DNA from: a virus
Taxonomy: Duplodnaviria; Heunggongvirae; Uroviricota; Caudoviricetes
IMG/VR virus record: IMGVR_UViG_2778261297_000003
Reading direction: 5' to 3' (one strand)
DNA: 45,246 nt
Shown here: positions 25,312 to 34,807 of the stretch, in pieces
Layout: every line of letters begins with the position of its first letter
Numbering within the stretch: position 1 is the first letter of the stretch
Notes under the pieces: generated by a model
Databases searched by the model: none
Told to the model about the DNA's origin: nothing
Seen by the model: the letters and a program-made list of their open reading frames with translations, nothing else
Program-made: the position numbers and the translations under genes

Positions 25312-26364
25312 TTATTCCCCTGTTAACGCCCTTATTTCCCCCACCGTCTGGCTAAACCTGTCCTTCTCGAGTTCAACGCCGATAGCCTGGCGGCCAAGTT
25401 CCAGCGCGATTTTCACGGTCGAACCGGACCCCATAAAGAAATCAGCCACCACATCACCAGGCTTACTGCTGGCGTTGATGATCTGCCGCAACATGTCAGC
25501 GGGTTTTTCGCATGGGTGTTTACCTGGGTAAAACTGAACGGGTTTATGTGTCCAGACGTCGGTATAAGGAACGGATACGGAAACAGAGAAATGCCGCCGA
25601 AGCGATTTGTACTCTTCGAGCAGCTCTGAATACTTGCGATTTAACGAATGCCACATAGCCACCAGCTGGTGGTGTGGTGTTGCCAGTTCGCCGTTCTGGT
25701 GCTTTTCGATGGCTACCTGCGTGAAAAGGGACTGAAGCTTCCGGTAGTCTGATTCATTCGGTAATTGCCACTGGCTACCGCTGAACCAGTGAGACACCAT
25801 GTTCTTCTTTCCAGTCGCATCGGCTATTTGTTTTGAGGTTATGCCAAGCGCTTCACGTGCATCCCGGAAATAAGAAATTAGGGGAGTCATTACATGCTGC
25901 TTCAGCTCGCTTCCCTTCTCAGCGTACCCGTCGCTCTTTGGTTTATACGGCCCCTGGTAATGCTCAGCGAACAGGATGCGCTCTGTTGCAGGGAAGTAAG
26001 AGCGCAGGCTCTCTTTATTACAGCCATTCCAGCGGCCCGACGGTTTAGCCCAGATGATGTGGTTCAGGACGTTGAACCGCTCACGCATCATGATCTCAAT
26101 GTCTGCCGCCAGACGGTGACCTGAGAAAAGATAAAGACTGCCGGCAGGTTTAAGCACTCGCCAGAATTGTGCGAGGCACATATCAAGCCAGCGAAGATAA
26201 TCCTCATCCCCTTTCCATTGATTGTCCCAGCCGTTGGGTTTCACTTTGAAGTACGGCGGATCCGTGACTATCAGGTCAATGAAGTTATCAGGGAGAGTTG
26301 CGATGTATTGCAGGCTATCAGCGTTGACTAACTCAACACTGTTTATATTTACAGTATTTTTCAT
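25312..26364 (-). CDS. DNA methyltransferase, beta-class (N6-adenine or N4-cytosine; DPPY motif)
   Basis: 350 aa; motif IV VTDPPY near the N-terminus and motif I FFMGSGST near the C-terminus. Confidence 0.8.
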   Translation of the reverse strand: MKNTVNINSVELVNADSLQYIATLPDNFIDLIVTDPPYFKVKPNGWDNQWKGDEDYLRWLDMCLAQFWRVLKPAGSLYLFSGHRLAADIEIMMRERFNVLNHIIWAKPSGRWNGCNKESLRSYFPATERILFAEHYQGPYKPKSDGYAEKGSELKQHVMTPLISYFRDAREALGITSKQIADATGKKNMVSHWFSGSQWQLPNESDYRKLQSLFTQVAIEKHQNGELATPHHQLVAMWHSLNRKYSELLEEYKSLRRHFSVSVSVPYTDVWTHKPVQFYPGKHPCEKPADMLRQIINASSKPGDVVADFFMGSGSTVKIALELGRQAIGVELEKDRFSQTVGEIRALTGE

Positions 26365-26582: not shown

Positions 26583-27482
26583 TTACGCGTTTCCAGGAGG
26601 GACATGCCAGACTCTTCGGCCATCCTCATGGTTCTCGATAATCTTGGCTGCTGTACTGCCACCAAAAGTGTGCATATAGCTATGATGTATCGTTAACACA
26701 ATATCTTGTAATGCCTGATCTGCTTCCATCGGTATGATTTTCAAACCAATTTGGCTAGCTTTATCACTGTGAATATGACGTGCATGAGCAAAAGTTGAAC
26801 TGTGGTTATTCAGGCTTGAACAAATAGCTTCAGCCTTTTGCTGGGCATCTGGATCCCCATCAAACATACCAGTAATTAGCCATTCACTGACAATTGTTGT
26901 TGCCCATTGGATTGCCTTTTCACACTCACCAATGAACGTCGGATTGAGTTTAGACAGTGTAAATTGCCAATACGCAGCAGTCGCAGGGTTTTTAATAATA
27001 TCTTGCATAGCCTTCTGCGCTTCTTCAATCACGCCATGTGCTGGCACGCCACCGATTTGGGGATCGAAAGGACCGATATTTGATTGTTTCCCCATGATGA
27101 TTTCTTTTGCACAACAAGCCAACATAGTCCCTGCTGACATAGATATCATGGGGACAAAAGCACGGATATCGTTACCGAACTTAGCTCTCAAGTAATAACC
27201 TATCGATTCTAAGGCGGCGATATCCCCACCAGGTGTATGCAAAATGAGATCAAGCCCCTTCGTGGCATCGAGCCCATGAACCGCTGTCATGAATCCATTT
27301 TTATCATCATCAGACATAGTGCATAAATGCGAGCTATTCTGAAGGAACCCCGAGTAGTACGCAATGACGTTACGTCCGGTCATCTGCGACATCTCTTTGA
27401 TATATTTGCTTCTTACTGTGTCTAGGGGGCTTTTTTGGGCGAGGACTGCAACCTCGCCCATAACATGATTCCAATTAGGCAT
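26583..27482 (-). CDS. Clp/crotonase-fold serine protease (S49/SDH-like), accessory
   Basis: 299 aa; ..LILHTPGGDIAALESIGYYL.. and ..ISMSAGTMLACCAKEIIMG.. resemble ClpP/SppA-fold serine peptidases; family assignment from memory. Confidence 0.55.
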   Translation of the reverse strand: MPNWNHVMGEVAVLAQKSPLDTVRSKYIKEMSQMTGRNVIAYYSGFLQNSSHLCTMSDDDKNGFMTAVHGLDATKGLDLILHTPGGDIAALESIGYYLRAKFGNDIRAFVPMISMSAGTMLACCAKEIIMGKQSNIGPFDPQIGGVPAHGVIEEAQKAMQDIIKNPATAAYWQFTLSKLNPTFIGECEKAIQWATTIVSEWLITGMFDGDPDAQQKAEAICSSLNNHSSTFAHARHIHSDKASQIGLKIIPMEADQALQDIVLTIHHSYMHTFGGSTAAKIIENHEDGRRVWHVPPGNA

Positions 27483-28134: not shown

Positions 28135-28827
28135 TCACATTTCTACCACTTTCGCTTCTTCATACTCTTCGTACCGCGCCAGGCTTTCACATAACGCCAC
28201 GCTGTCCATTTCCACGAAAGCTGCTTTAAATGCTGTCCAGTGAGCAGCGTATACCCTTAGCCAAGTTGAACGCTCCACGCTCACCATGCGGGCCAGTGCA
28301 GCCCCCGCATACTCCTGGTACGTATCGTTATTGCGTGATGCCGCAACTTCCTGGGCCGCGAGCCAGACCAACCCCACTAATTTTTTTGTGACTCTGTCTT
28401 GGAGCTTCTTACTCCCCTGCTGATGCTGAAACTGTGCCCAAACGTACTGGCACATTAACGTCTGGTACCGGAAAGACAGGTCATACCCATAGCAATACCT
28501 CACCCATGCCTGCAAATGCTCCCCCAGACCATTCACCGAACGACGCCATGCTGAACAAGCGAACTCCGTATCCTTAATAGGCGGTAAAGGTCGACGACGG
28601 CTCCTTGTCTCAAGAACATAAAGTGGAGTGGCCAGCGTTTTTACAACCTTGGATCCACAACCTTCCCCACCCTCCATGATGATTTCAGGATGGTGCCGGG
28701 GGTATTTGTTCTTATCTGCTGGTGGATGCTCACTGAACGCCTGCAGCTGTCCTTTTGTCGATCCTGATAAATCCGCCAGCGCGCGGCGCAGTTCAATCCG
28801 TGTAAATTCCAGTTCTTGTAAATTCAT
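28135..28827 (-). CDS. late antiterminator Q (putative)
   Basis: About 230 aa from MNLQELEF; mainly positional: last gene before a promoter-proximal terminator and the late/lysis region. Confidence 0.5.
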   Translation of the reverse strand: MNLQELEFTRIELRRALADLSGSTKGQLQAFSEHPPADKNKYPRHHPEIIMEGGEGCGSKVVKTLATPLYVLETRSRRRPLPPIKDTEFACSAWRRSVNGLGEHLQAWVRYCYGYDLSFRYQTLMCQYVWAQFQHQQGSKKLQDRVTKKLVGLVWLAAQEVAASRNNDTYQEYAGAALARMVSVERSTWLRVYAAHWTAFKAAFVEMDSVALCESLARYEEYEEAKVVEM

Positions 28828-28848
28828 TATGCTCAGCGCTCCATACAA

Positions 28849-30613: not shown

Positions 30614-32551
30614 TCAGGCGGCTGCACCCGCCTTTTGATTTGCACATAATTCAGGAAGATTTGCTTCTACCAGCGCACGAGCGAACGGCGGCGGTACTGC
30701 GTTACCACAGCGCGCTACCTGCTTGTCTTTGGCGTAACGATTGCCGCGATAGTCCTGATCGATAACGTAGCCGTCAGGGAAGCCCTGCGCCTTATAAAGC
30801 TCATGCGGTTGCAGCATGCGCATTCCGATATCGACGATCTGGTACTTAACCCCCTCGATCGTCACCAGCCATTCATCCTCGCTATCACCGCAGTAGGTTT
30901 CGAGGAATGTCCGGACCTCGCCAACGTGCTGGCCACCAGCGGTAATCGTCGGCATAGGTGTATCCATGGTCTGACCGTCGCTGCAGGTTCCGCGCAGCTT
31001 CACCAGGTGCGACGCAACTACCGCGTGGTGATCAACAGTAGTGACTGAGTGGGCAGGCTCATCCATACCAACACCCGGCCCCGTGTAATTCCCACCATAG
31101 TGCTTCGCCAGGAACGCGCTCACCGTTGCAAACTTATTACCACCAGCAGTGACCGTGCCGAGCGGGTTATTCAGTTGAAGAACACGCGGTTCTTGCCCTG
31201 GGCGTTCGCCGTACCCCATCTGGATCAGTGTTGGAGTTACCAGCTGCGACTTACCGCCACCACCTGCAGTAATCGTCGCACTCGGTTCGTCAGCCCTGTG
31301 CCCAACACTGGCTCCAAACTGGCGGGCGATGACCGGCGCAACCACGCACGCGCGGGACTGCTTGAGGATTGTATGAGCGGGTTTATCCAGCGGGCGCGGC
31401 TTTGCCTGGTACTCACTGCCGCCATTGCCAGCCAGGAACGGTGTCAGGGCGGCCTCAACTACGCCAAGCGCATGCCCATTCCCGCCCGGGCGCGCCGACG
31501 TACCAGCGGTGACAGTTGGTACCGGCTCGGTCACTGGCTGCCCGGTGGCCCCGGTGCGGAATTTAGTAAGATGCGGTACCGCCAGTGCGTAGCCATGCTT
31601 TTTAGTGATGGTCTGCAATGGCTCTAACAACGATTGCCCGCGGAAACAGTCATAACCTCCTTTCGTCGTGGTGTGGTTACACTTCACGATGAAAGGTGAT
31701 GCGCTTTCGATAACAAAGCGCTGGATGCCGCGCGCGATACGTTTGAGCGTATTTTCCGCCAGCGGCTTTTTGCGGTCGAAGATGGACCGGGCCGGGATAT
31801 TCCAGTCAATGCACTCCGCCGCGGTACGCCATGGCGCCAGCTTGCCGCTTTGTACTTCCAGTGATTTTGGATCCCCATGAGTCGCTTCAGGCCAATGAAT
31901 CTTGCGGCCGTCACAGCGCATGACCATGAAGAAACGCTTTCTGATCGTCGGCGCGCCGTAGTCACATGCGCGCAGCTCCCGATAATCAACCTCATAACCA
32001 AGCCCGGCGATCAGCTGTTGCGCCTGCTGGCCGTGCGGCTCAATGGCAAGGAATTCACAAACCTCAGCCAGCGCAGGGTGATTCGCCGCGATCCCCGTCG
32101 ACAGCATGCCGACAAATGCCTCGAATGTTTCGCCAGCACGCTCAGGATCTGGGCGTAATTCTTCATCCAGCAGCGGGCCCCATGTCTTAAACTCTTCGAC
32201 GTTCTCCAGCATCATGACGCGGGGACGTACTGCCAGCGCCCAGCGCAGGACAATCCACGCCAGCCCGCGAATCTCTTTCTTAACCGGCTTAGCGCCCTTC
32301 GCCTTGGAAAAGTGGCGGCAGTCAGGGCTAAACCAGGCCAGACCGACAGGTTTACCGCTGGTGGCTGCGCTTGGGTCAACGTCAAACACCGACTCGCAAT
32401 AATGCAGCGTGTCAGGGTGATTCGTCTTATGCATCGCAATAGCGTTTTCGTCGTGGTTGATAGCGATATCCACGCTACGCCCGATCGCCAGTTCAATGCC
32501 GGTACTCGCGCCGCCGCCACCAGCAAAGTTATCAACGATAATTTCACGCAT
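30614..32551 (-). CDS. DNA (cytosine-5)-methyltransferase, large, with repeated TRD-like modules
   Basis: About 645 aa from MREIIVDNFAGGGGAS (motif I); SPDC..FS.AKG (motif IV-like), MLENV (motif VI), RKRFFMV (motif VIII), CGNAV (motif X); four TxTAGG-containing repeats between motifs VIII and X. Confidence 0.8.
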   Translation of the reverse strand: MREIIVDNFAGGGGASTGIELAIGRSVDIAINHDENAIAMHKTNHPDTLHYCESVFDVDPSAATSGKPVGLAWFSPDCRHFSKAKGAKPVKKEIRGLAWIVLRWALAVRPRVMMLENVEEFKTWGPLLDEELRPDPERAGETFEAFVGMLSTGIAANHPALAEVCEFLAIEPHGQQAQQLIAGLGYEVDYRELRACDYGAPTIRKRFFMVMRCDGRKIHWPEATHGDPKSLEVQSGKLAPWRTAAECIDWNIPARSIFDRKKPLAENTLKRIARGIQRFVIESASPFIVKCNHTTTKGGYDCFRGQSLLEPLQTITKKHGYALAVPHLTKFRTGATGQPVTEPVPTVTAGTSARPGGNGHALGVVEAALTPFLAGNGGSEYQAKPRPLDKPAHTILKQSRACVVAPVIARQFGASVGHRADEPSATITAGGGGKSQLVTPTLIQMGYGERPGQEPRVLQLNNPLGTVTAGGNKFATVSAFLAKHYGGNYTGPGVGMDEPAHSVTTVDHHAVVASHLVKLRGTCSDGQTMDTPMPTITAGGQHVGEVRTFLETYCGDSEDEWLVTIEGVKYQIVDIGMRMLQPHELYKAQGFPDGYVIDQDYRGNRYAKDKQVARCGNAVPPPFARALVEANLPELCANQKAGAAA

Positions 32552-33878
32552 TGACGGCCCCCTGCATGCTGTTGAAGAGACCACCAGCGGTCGTGATAAT
32601 TTCACTCGTCGGCATACGTTCGAGCCACAGCTGGTTGATATTGGCTTTCAGCTTGTTCTGCTGCGAAACAGGTAGAGCGTCAGCCCCTTCAATCTGGTTA
32701 AACACCAGTCCAACCTCAAGAGGCCAAACGCGCGATTCGTTTAACGCCTTGTCCTTTGATTCCTGCGTCTCACGGACATGGGCGCGGATCCCCCGAATAT
32801 TTGACCATTTGGCTTTATCCAGGCTTTCCATGGTCGCGATGAATTCACTGTGGTTAATGCCGTATTCTTTCGCAGACTCAACGGCAACCGTGCGTAACCG
32901 CTCTGACATGTCTTGTTTCACGTCATCGCTATCAAAGGGCAATGTTTCCAGCCATGCATTAACACCCACCAGGATGCTCTCGCTGATCAGCTTTTTCGCT
33001 CTGTCGATCGTCAGCGGTGAAACATTGGTAAATTCAGGGTTTTCCAGAGAGTCGGCAGCCCAGGTATGACCAAACTTTGACTCGCTGAAGGTGTACTCGT
33101 CTTTCTTGCCGAACGCCGCGACAACACAGGCCCAAGCCTCTACACCGCTGGTTTCCAGAATGGCTTTTTGGGTTAATGGCAGTTCTGCCTCTGATTTCTC
33201 CGGCACTACCTCAGCGTCCAGCTCCGGCGCCGCATCAGTTTGCGTTCTTCCCACGGCAAATTGGGCCAGCGACATCGCAGCACGGCCTTTGGCCTCCAGG
33301 TCGGTGCGGTTGATGTAACTGAAACGCTCACCCCGCCATGTTTTGTCGAAGACCACGATAGCGCCAGCAAAAAATGCGCTGGTGGGCTGCTGCTTTTCGT
33401 CTTTCGGCACGAACCATGTAGGAAGATCGAAACCAATTCGGCCACGGATGAATGTGACGTGATCTGCCTCTTCCGGCCACCACGTCTCACTCGTCGCAGA
33501 CTTAATGAGAAAAACGTACCGTCCACCCTTTTCTCGCATTGCCATAGCGTGGTTAATGATGTGGGTCATTCCGGTAACGGCCTGCTTGTCGTGGTACTGA
33601 GAGCGGCTGTAAGGCGGGTTGCCAAACCCGGCACCACCGAGTTCTGCCAGACGCTCTGACCAATCCTGCGTCAGGGCATTATTTTCAGCCGTGTACCAGG
33701 TTGGGCACTTCGCGTTGCTGTCGTCGGCAAAAAGGTCCAACACCAGAGGGCCGAACATCGCATTGATACCCCAAAACAACAGATCCGGAGTGCGCCATTG
33801 ATCGCCGACCTCTTTCAACTCATGGGCTGGTTTTGAACGCAGTTCAGCCAGCGCGCGGCAGTATTTGCTTTCAATCAT
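32544..33878 (-). CDS. phage Dam-type N6-adenine methyltransferase (NPPY) fused to a 270-aa C-terminal domain of unknown function
   Basis: N-terminal region WRTPDLLF...GFGNPPYS matches phage Dam family; C-terminal extension has no recognised motifs. Confidence 0.7.
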   Translation of the reverse strand: MIESKYCRALAELRSKPAHELKEVGDQWRTPDLLFWGINAMFGPLVLDLFADDSNAKCPTWYTAENNALTQDWSERLAELGGAGFGNPPYSRSQYHDKQAVTGMTHIINHAMAMREKGGRYVFLIKSATSETWWPEEADHVTFIRGRIGFDLPTWFVPKDEKQQPTSAFFAGAIVVFDKTWRGERFSYINRTDLEAKGRAAMSLAQFAVGRTQTDAAPELDAEVVPEKSEAELPLTQKAILETSGVEAWACVVAAFGKKDEYTFSESKFGHTWAADSLENPEFTNVSPLTIDRAKKLISESILVGVNAWLETLPFDSDDVKQDMSERLRTVAVESAKEYGINHSEFIATMESLDKAKWSNIRGIRAHVRETQESKDKALNESRVWPLEVGLVFNQIEGADALPVSQQNKLKANINQLWLERMPTSEIITTAGGLFNSMQGAVNA

Positions 33879-34807
33879 CCTCTGAACCCCTCTGGAATTT
33901 TGGTATCTACCGGGCCGAACTTCATCGGGTCATGTTTCTTCTCGCCCCAGCTTTCACGCGGGGGACGGCCTTTCTTATCCCAGCGGATCCCGCTTTGCAG
34001 ATAACCCTCAAATTTTTTCGGCCCAAACAGAGTTTCAGGCCGCATGTACTGATACTGCGCGTCATTGCCGTTCCAGTGTTCATGCTTAAGGTCAATCACC
34101 AGCGTCAAGTCGCTGACGGTATAACCTTCACGCAGACGGGCACGTATGTTTTCCAGAGAGGTTTTAGATTTCTGGTACCGTGAGCCGCTAACCTGGTTCA
34201 AATGAGTTAAAACCAGGATGGCGTTATCAGTGATCAACACTTCAGGGTCTGGTTGCGGCGCAACCGGACAAGAGGGGTTAATGATCTGTTTGTGATGATC
34301 TGAGTAATGATCTGTATAGAGAATAGGTTCCGCGACTTCGCGGTTAGGGTTCTGCGGTTCTGCGTTTTCGGTTCCGTGATTTTGCGGAATAGGTTCCGCG
34401 ACTTCGCGTTTCCCGTTCCGCGATTCTGCGGAATCCAGTGTTACAGGGAATAAAACGTTAATTAGCGCTTCGCCGTTAATGCGGTAATGCGTTTTTTTTG
34501 TACCATTTACCTGGCGCTGGGTCTTTTGAACTACGTCAGGAAGCCAACGAGTGCAAATCTTGTTTACAAGGCGCTGTACCTGATCTTCACTTACTCCTCG
34601 AATCTCAGCGGCAAGCTCACTGTGTTCTTTGTAGAACCAGCCATCATTCAAGTCGGATTTACCTGACCAGAACACAAGTTGGTTTAGAACAGCACCTAAG
34701 GCGTGCGCCTGCTGGTCACCTGAGAAAAAATCGAGGTAAGGCACCGGAATGGTAATGCAGTTCCGTTGTCCCGATAGCGATTGAACGATTTCAAATATCT
34801 GGCTCAT
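33875..34807 (-). CDS. replication initiator (lambda O-like architecture, iterons within the gene)
   Basis: 310 aa; internal repeated peptide REVAEPIPQN...REVAEPIL is encoded by DNA iterons, as in lambda O; C-terminal region resembles the conserved phage replication C-terminus. Confidence 0.55.
   Translation of the reverse strand: MSQIFEIVQSLSGQRNCITIPVPYLDFFSGDQQAHALGAVLNQLVFWSGKSDLNDGWFYKEHSELAAEIRGVSEDQVQRLVNKICTRWLPDVVQKTQRQVNGTKKTHYRINGEALINVLFPVTLDSAESRNGKREVAEPIPQNHGTENAEPQNPNREVAEPILYTDHYSDHHKQIINPSCPVAPQPDPEVLITDNAILVLTHLNQVSGSRYQKSKTSLENIRARLREGYTVSDLTLVIDLKHEHWNGNDAQYQYMRPETLFGPKKFEGYLQSGIRWDKKGRPPRESWGEKKHDPMKFGPVDTKIPEGFRG
34281..34430. repeat. iteron array / candidate origin of replication
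   Basis: Three direct ATGATCTG repeats (each with a GATC) at 34281-34314, and 21-bp direct repeats AATAGGTTCCGCGACTTCGCG at 34322-34342 and 34388-34408 plus degenerate GGTTCCGCGA/TTCTGCGG units. Confidence 0.5.

Follow-up and report, generated by a model that had tools for sequence, protein, structure and literature searches.

A phage Dam methyltransferase fused to two portable helical modules and its probable link to a neighboring C5 cytosine methylase

Orphan methylases are a main route by which phages evade restriction and are also used as laboratory tools. Here, we analyze a methylase gene in a viral sequence of 45,246 nucleotides (nt), IMG/VR record IMGVR_UViG_2778261297_000003 (Caudoviricetes), the whole of which is referred to below as the window and which is an Escherichia coli temperate phage or prophage. 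On its minus strand, genes are arranged in the order CII-like, DUF4222, O-like replication initiator, Dam fusion, C5 cytosine methylase, Ant, DUF968/HNH, and Q, the Dam fusion being a phage Dam-type N6-adenine methyltransferase with a long C-terminal extension. We find that this extension consists of a linker, a middle module (Mid), and a terminal module of 62 amino acids (aa), and that each module also occurs on other carriers. Whatever its fusion partner, the terminal module accompanies, in a clade-specific manner, the large C5 methylase encoded next, an enzyme with multiple units that resemble target recognition domains (TRDs). The fusion probably links Dam and the C5 methylase rather than methylation and replication.

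Results

The Dam fusion was originally predicted to lie at 32544-33878, with no strand given. These positions proved to be the exact bounds of a 444-aa open reading frame (ORF) that begins with ATG and is read on the minus strand, from 33878 to 32544; the plus-strand translation is full of stops. The gene lies directly downstream of the O-like initiator gene, as had been predicted, with the stop codon of one and the start codon of the other overlapping. The 6-kb region around it shares 96.8% nucleotide identity with Escherichia phage Flotzy and 96.7% with Eeyore. Three complete E. coli genomes carry the gene at 100% identity, with "phage N-6-adenine-methyltransferase" as the PGAP product name. 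The full 444-aa form is rare, being present in 13 of 5426 complete E. coli genomes and in three phage records.

On the basis of sequence profiles, residues 1-205 are a member of the phage Dam family (PF05869/TIGR01712). The Pfam Dam profile PF05869 matches residues 19-199 (E=3.4e-43, 147.7 bits against a cutoff of 28.1), the NCBIfam equivalog TIGR01712 (phage_N6A_met) scores 202.3 bits (cutoff 97.05), and PADLOC classifies the protein as MTase_II, a type II methylase. The sequence DQWRTPDLLF at residues 26-35, which holds the DxWxTP motif, and the catalytic NPPY are both intact, and their columns are nearly invariant in the homologue alignment. The family assignment and the two motifs cited for it are thereby upheld, with both profile cutoffs well exceeded. 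The fusion itself is likewise real, but its boundary has to be moved, as the Dam domain reaches to about residue 205 and not 170, leaving an extension of about 240 and not 270 aa.

Alignment of homologues of 295-448 aa divides the protein into four parts, namely Dam (residues 1-205), a linker (206-232), Mid (233-380), and a terminal block (381-444). The extension had been described as an uncharacterised C-terminal domain; it is indeed uncharacterised, but it is not a single domain, comprising instead the linker and two separable modules with different distributions. No Pfam match was obtained for the extension (residues 201-444) even at E<=10, and 11 members of the Mid family compared with Pfam gave only single chance hits at E>0.01. 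Mid had no match among the PHROGs, NCBIfam and PADLOC matched the Dam part only and nothing on the extension, and sequence searches of the PDB with the whole protein and with a terminal-module profile returned nothing significant. The AlphaFold2 (AF2) model of the full-length protein was poor, with a predicted local distance difference test score (pLDDT) of 55; a model of residues 229-444 has a mean pLDDT of 86.6 and is all-alpha, with two domains and a low-confidence hinge between them. In Foldseek comparisons with BFVD and the PDB, no match had an E value below 0.9, and those obtained were to generic helical folds only.

Purifying selection acts on both modules. In comparisons with 38 homologous genes, the ratio of nonsynonymous (dN) to synonymous (dS) substitution rates was typically 0.05-0.28 for Mid and 0-0.22 for the terminal module, values comparable with those of the Dam domain. 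The linker varies in both length and sequence among homologues, and its dN/dS is noisy and often higher, reaching 0.9.

Mid, modeled with a pLDDT of about 90, is characterized by the conserved motif ESKF(A/G)HTWAADS and a C-terminal W.NIR..R, with invariant S, H, W, D, N, and R columns in the alignment. It is found only in a subset of the aligned Dam homologues. When residues 229-444 were compared exhaustively with 1.84 billion cluster representatives by HMMER, only 46 relatives were identified, and a profile search with the Mid alignment recovered only 13 proteins; the alignment is therefore shallow. Mid forms the C-terminus of ParB-like proteins of 349-446 aa that contain HTH_ParB (P0123, P0125, P0129, and P0131) and is also present in the distant Dam fusions P0157 and P0159 (about 32% identity). 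The ParB-like proteins with Mid occupy the same slot after O-like genes, yet no C5 gene comes next. Across the family, Mid is mildly acidic (net charge -1 to -15, isoelectric point [pI] 4.4-6.0), and the charge of the terminal module is close to neutral, so that protein-protein interaction seems likelier than mimicry of DNA or binding to it; for both modules, a DNA-binding function was considered and dropped because they are acidic to neutral. A possible Ser-His-Asp triad in Mid was also dropped, since all three residues lie on one helix.

ParB-like proteins in this slot were further observed in IMG/VR loci L143-L156, L162-L166, and L191, where they have a ParB N-terminal domain and HTH_ParB and lie downstream of Phg_2220_C initiators. 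They measure 435-441 aa with Mid versus 265-283 aa without it, and in L140 and L141 the ParB-like part and Mid are encoded by separate, adjacent ORFs (223 and 177 aa).

The terminal module follows the consensus xTVWPxEVxLVFxQ..A..LP...Q.RLK.HINxxWLE..P...II.A, in which W, P, E, and L are invariant. Residues 383-437 match phrog_16025 (E=4.7e-15), and a stand-alone homologue (P0142) matches the 85-aa PHROG 16025 over its full length (E=1.2e-49), PHROG 16025 being the stand-alone form of the module. Hundreds of Dam proteins of 295-299 aa from Enterobacter and Citrobacter prophages share the terminal block and lack Mid. Among the HMMER relatives, it also appears as stand-alone proteins of 81-138 aa and in fusion with a methylase bearing a DPPH motif (P0149). 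Most often the module is a gene of its own, and in Klebsiella phage Kpn_R1 it is an 86-aa ORF that directly overlaps the start of the C5 methylase. A beta-clamp-binding motif considered in the terminal module was rejected as unconserved across the family.

The association of the terminal module with the C5 methylase was evaluated in both directions. A scan of Enterobacterales, with one genome per species, gave 53 loci (from Kluyvera, Atlantibacter, Citrobacter, Serratia, Pantoea, Erwiniaceae, and others), and the C5 gene directly follows the module in 53/53, four of these C5 genes being degraded. The module is carried there as a stand-alone protein (about 37 loci), by a DPPH methylase (7), by Dam (7, one of them with an added N-terminal phosphoadenosine phosphosulfate [PAPS] reductase domain), or by an MT-A70-like DPPW methylase (1). 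One further locus, L181, encodes a ParB-like protein fused to the module, again with C5 next. When IMG/VR loci were retrieved by the terminal module, about 68 of the 80 had C5 next, 5 had a C5 deletion, and 7 had neither, with RusA next where checked; the dominant order was O-like, Dam (with or without Mid) plus module, C5, and Ant.

Reverse sampling by a DNA pattern of the C5 N-terminus yielded 120 loci, of which 117 were evaluable, and the terminal module was present at 79 of these (stand-alone at 34, on Dam at 20, on Dam with Mid at 11, on a DPPH methylase at 9, and on MT-A70 at 5). The C5 proteins at the 79 loci are 71-100% identical to that of the window over 300 aa. Among the C5 proteins that lack the module, those that align over the full N-terminus are at most 63% identical, and the others are truncated or have too little upstream sequence to score. 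At about 160 distinct junctions between module and C5, the C5 start always overlaps the module stop, as ATGA, GTGA, or ATGCGTGA; counted by type, ATG with an 8-nt overlap accounts for 61 distinct junctions, GTGA for 59, ATGA for 14, and GTG with an 8-nt overlap for 3. Exceptions to the order of module then C5 are a lineage with RusA adjacent and the C5 deletions.

The C5 methylase itself contains motifs I, IV, VI, VIII, IX, and X, and the terminal module carries none of them. A repeat scan (P..[ST][IVL][TLMV]) detected seven tandem TRD-like units of about 35-45 aa at residues ~311-560, each consisting of [DE]P..T[IV]T(A)GG and then a hydrophobic strand; these units resemble the tandem TRDs seen in multispecific phage C5 methylases. 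Their gain or loss gives homologues of 575 to 763 aa, in which the N-terminal 300 aa stay 71-100% identical. The module-bearing clade is distinguished by an insertion of at least 32 aa between motifs VI and VIII, such that the spacing from ENVEEFKTWGP to RELRACDYGAPT is 64-88 aa in C5 proteins with the terminal module versus 31-32 aa in those without. An HPA[LIV] segment within the insertion is present in 64 of 65 C5 proteins with the module and in 0 of 25 without it.

Rearranged forms of the locus were also encountered. A 405-aa protein found on three contigs (P0009) is a natural chimera in which Dam and the leading two thirds of Mid are joined directly to the C-terminal ~85 aa of the C5 methylase (junction …EDEWLVTIEGVKYQIVDIGMRMLQPHELY…GNAVPPP…), a layout that points to deletion of the terminal module and most of C5. 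Locus L014 has a 244-aa C5 remnant.

Table 1. Positions of the Dam fusion, its parts, and the adjoining genes in the window
Feature	Position	Strand	Description and basis
Dam-fusion ORF	32544..33878	minus	Dam, linker, Mid module, and terminal module; stop codon included; ORF listing
Dam-type N6-adenine methyltransferase domain	33264..33878	minus	Residues 1-205; PF05869, TIGR01712, PADLOC MTase_II; dN/dS 0.06-0.25
WRTPDLLF	33774-33797	minus	Residues 28-35; from translation
Catalytic NPPY	33609-33620	minus	Residues 87-90; from translation
Acidic low-complexity linker	33183..33263	minus	Residues 206-232; alignment, pLDDT <50 in full-length model, dN/dS
Mid module	32739..33182	minus	Residues 233-380, ~148 aa, all-alpha, ~9 helices; alignment, AF2, dN/dS
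Terminal module	32547..32738	minus	Residues 381-444, three helices, 62 aa, PHROG 16025-like; pLDDT 85-91; dN/dS 0-0.22
Junction of Dam-fusion stop and C5 start	32544..32551	minus	ATGCGTGA, 8-nt overlap; translational-coupling geometry; from sequence
C5 cytosine methyltransferase	30614..32551	minus	645 aa, downstream partner gene; PF00145
C5 clade-specific insertion	about 31997-32104	minus	Residues ~150-185, "FVGMLSTGIAANHPALAEVCEFLAIEPHGQQAQQLIAG", between motif VI and the RELRACDYGAPTIRKR motif
Junction of Dam-fusion start and O-like stop	33875..33878	minus	ATGA overlap; read from sequence
O-like replication initiator (Phg_2220_C)	33875..34807	minus	Upstream gene; internal iterons, three GATC sites

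The O-like gene contains about five 22-bp iterons (CGCGAAGTCGCGGAACCTATTC-like) at 34321-34430. Three GATC sites, at 34283, 34297, and 34309, fall within 30 bp (34283-34312) at spacings of 14 and 12 bp. They had been described as part of repeats at the origin; the clustering is confirmed, and the sites lie immediately beside the iterons. The trio sits in an AT-richer stretch, and the origin-like region as a whole (34283-34430) lies inside the O-like gene. Across the window, GATC is only mildly enriched (210 observed versus 180 +/- 12 expected).

Two further genes on the minus strand may be mentioned. A third DNA methylase gene, at 25312-26364, encodes a 350-aa protein matching PF01555 (N6_N4_Mtase, E=1.5e-42) and sits between the Q antiterminator gene (28135-28848) and the lysis genes; with Dam and C5, the prophage therefore has three methylases from three different families. 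Between this gene and the Q gene region, a 299-aa ORF (26583-27482) encodes a ClpP-like SDH-type serine protease domain (PF01972, E=2.4e-18) with no obvious membership in a head-maturation module.

Discussion

The reading that we favor, with somewhat less than even confidence, is that the window encodes an intact early-operon phage Dam fused in frame, by modular recombination, to two portable helical modules, and thereby tethered to or co-regulated with the C5 methylase. The terminal module could serve as an accessory or adaptor subunit of the C5 methylase, either as an activator or as a docking element, and would probably contact the clade-specific C5 insertion. Through the fusion and the overlapping stop and start codons, Dam and C5 may be made in a coupled way. 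It is conceivable that the two enzymes are tethered into one self-protection machine for N6-methyladenine and 5-methylcytosine, expressed right after the replication initiator and, by analogy, functionally comparable to phage P1 Dmt. Mid, for its part, could be a mildly acidic domain for protein-protein interaction, bringing its carrier (Dam here, ParB-like proteins elsewhere) to some partner, and it may be optional for replication.

P1 Dmt is a single-chain Dam and C5 (Dam-Dcm) methylase. In both cases a temperate phage makes one methylase for adenine and one for cytosine together, presumably to serve self-protection or packaging. The window differs in that separate ORFs, read in different frames and overlapping by 8 nt, encode its two methylases, with a 62-aa module between them and another type of Dam. 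It thus lacks the Dmt-type layout, with Dam and C5 catalytic domains in one polypeptide, and the single-chain variant P0009 has the appearance of a deletion chimera. The P1 dmt gene is mentioned in PMC12707154, where the "Trojan horse" self-protection role is also reviewed, and by analogy a coupled Dam/C5 pair would fit such a role.

Several observations weigh against coupling through the terminal module. The C5 methylase has all canonical motifs and no obvious need of a subunit, and it starts directly with motif I, with no N-terminal docking element. In some lineages, the terminal module persists without an adjacent C5 gene. E. coli Nissle retains it in this way, and Dam plus module is followed by RusA in Salmonella phage ST64B Sb44 (L344, sb44-sb45), phage 118970_sal3 (L004), and L070-L073, L077, L081, and L083; the module may therefore also serve Dam or act alone. 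In the lineage with RusA next, a different sequence (…TATSEIITAASELVRNMRGEAA or …GLVSSMRREVA) takes the place of the module's third and last helix, suggestive of recombination with its breakpoint in the module. Many of the IMG/VR loci are closely related, so that the counts overstate the number of independent events, and the association of the module with the C5 insertion amounts to one clade and is thus confounded by phylogeny.

A more specific proposal may be put forward only tentatively and is in our judgment rather doubtful. According to this proposal, the 62-aa module would be an unrecognised accessory subunit required by an Enterobacterales clade of phage multi-TRD C5 methylases and would dock on the insertion between motifs VI and VIII, having been repeatedly fused to Dam, to two further methylase types, and to a ParB-like protein to give tethered complexes, with Mid as a second, independent recruiting domain of Dam and ParB-like proteins. 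A parallel may be drawn with ParB-dependent phage thymine dioxygenases, a subclass marked by a variable insertion and dependent on a neighboring accessory protein (PMC13229309). Both cases combine an insertion-marked enzyme subclass with an obligate small neighbor, and at L181 the module is itself fused to a ParB-like protein. They differ in that the enzyme here is an S-adenosylmethionine-dependent methylase and not an Fe/2-oxoglutarate dioxygenase, the partner is a three-helix module of 62 aa and not a ParB CTPase fold, and dependence on the partner is putative.

Other precedents agree in part. In the two-subunit C5 methylases M.AquI and M.EcoHK31I, the small chain supplies catalytic motifs. 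They resemble the present case in that a small polypeptide is encoded next to, or overlapping, the C5 gene; in the window, by contrast, the C5 methylase holds all its motifs and the terminal module none. The seven tandem P..T[IV]T units, variable in number among homologues, recall the multispecific C5 methylases of Bacillus phages SPR, phi3T, and rho11s (Trautner et al. 1996, as cited in PMC12707154). The window C5, a putative multispecific enzyme, differs from these in host group, in its motif VI-VIII insertion, and in its conserved upstream partner ORF.

An unlikely alternative is that the terminal module, or its translation, controls expression or toxicity by gating the production or activity of C5, with the Dam fusion being incidental. 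The module could then be a translational-coupling leader, a timing regulator, or a neutraliser of host methyl-cytosine-dependent restriction (McrBC/McrA/Mrr). Such control would be consistent with the universally conserved overlap of stop and start codons at the junctions of module and C5 and with the stand-alone form of about 85 aa being the commonest. A mere leader ORF does not account for the strong amino acid conservation at saturated synonymous change (dN 0.03 and dS 0.74 in comparison with L038 and L040), which indicates a folded protein. A regulator is not supported by family matches either, as the module has no helix-turn-helix match of the HTH_3/XRE type and none to controller proteins (none in Pfam, E>=0.34 for the profile against PDB sequences, and no significant fold match), and its near-neutral charge is unlike that of DNA-mimic inhibitors.

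It also seems improbable to us that the fusion is a neutral mosaic, in which the genes of two independent small phage proteins, Mid and the terminal module, were located by chance between Dam and C5 and were joined in frame by recombination or stop-codon loss, with no consequence beyond co-expression. The terminal module does exist as a stand-alone ORF, both modules are found on several unrelated carriers, and the linker is of low complexity and variable. In addition, dS is unequal between regions of single gene pairs, from which recombination between the modules, with breakpoints there, can be concluded. Accident is nevertheless a poor explanation for a terminal module that is found independently on five different DNA-acting carriers, always C-terminal and always abutting C5, or for a Dam-Mid fusion that recurs in a distant lineage with about 32% Mid identity.

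The original prediction noted that the gene sits where lambda P would be and proposed that the fusion could couple methylation to replication. It is now very improbable that the extension stands in for a helicase loader of the lambda P type, or that it links GATC methylation with origin firing through binding to DnaB or the O-like protein, for all that the gene abuts the initiator and its GATC cluster. Pfam detects neither lambda P nor DnaC/IstB nor any other family in the extension, which also lacks a Walker A motif (G....GK[ST]), and the structure prediction that had been suggested for the C-terminal region yielded two all-alpha domains (model of residues 229-444) with no match to a known helicase loader or other fold beyond generic helical ones. 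Mid seems dispensable for this replication module, and the last 62 aa belong with the C5 gene. An O-like protein 89% identical to that of the window (L066) is found beside a 299-aa Dam without Mid, and Dam with Mid is paired with O-like alleles of 30 to 100% identity; Mid is therefore not co-inherited with the initiator as a helicase loader would be.

Least probable of all is an anti-restriction decoy, in which Mid would inhibit host restriction enzymes as an acidic, DNA-mimic-like domain, since its acidity across the family and its location in a gene cassette devoted to DNA methylation are offset by a charge density far below that of known DNA mimics, by the lack of any fold match to Ocr, ArdA, or Arn in the PDB or BFVD, and by a conserved motif that is aromatic and polar with no patterned acidic surface. 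The suggestion that the extension adds an anti-restriction function is accordingly not favored in this form, Mid being only mildly acidic and the terminal module near neutral; for the methylase cassette as a whole, an anti-restriction role is plausible.

Returning to the favored coupling of Dam with C5, comparison with known Dam proteins shows where the window stands. Its 205-aa Dam domain has the same DxWxTP and NPPY motifs as the Dams of the phage T1/VT-2/933W type (PF05869, TIGR01712) and is well above the cutoffs of both profiles. The closest named relative with the terminal module is ST64B Sb44, which has the same layout of Dam and terminal module; relative to Sb44 and the 295-299-aa Dams, the window protein has an extra Mid of about 148 aa between the two. 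The Dam fusion is thus a new architectural variant of a known enzyme family, and the small C5 partner that it has absorbed is uncharacterised. Our literature search found no paper on the fusion of Dam, Mid, and terminal module, on PHROG 16025, or on the C5 partner.

The results bear directly on annotation. The Flotzy coding sequence XNS38014 (PP925827 CDS0062, L001 2706-4040) is misnamed "PAPS reductase," a pharokka-style "phosphoadenosine phosphosulfate reductase," and the latter label is also applied to Dam family members at NC_031940 gp124 and NC_004313 (ST64B). The misnaming arises because PHROG 33262 derives from fusions of PAPS reductase with Dam (for example, a 595-aa ORF, L137, 2420-4207). 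PHROG 16025 is labeled "DNA methyltransferase" by association only, as the 85-aa module has no methylase motifs. Our analysis corrects both names, that of the Dam fusion in phages annotated with pharokka and that of the 85-aa PHROG 16025 proteins, and also removes the suggestion that the Dam fusion is a replication factor. If C5 proves to require the terminal module as its partner or activator, this would explain possible misbehavior of such C5 enzymes when cloned alone. It would then also provide a second example of accessory-dependent phage DNA-modifying enzymes, and the module together with the C5 insertion would offer a simple genomic marker of the clade.

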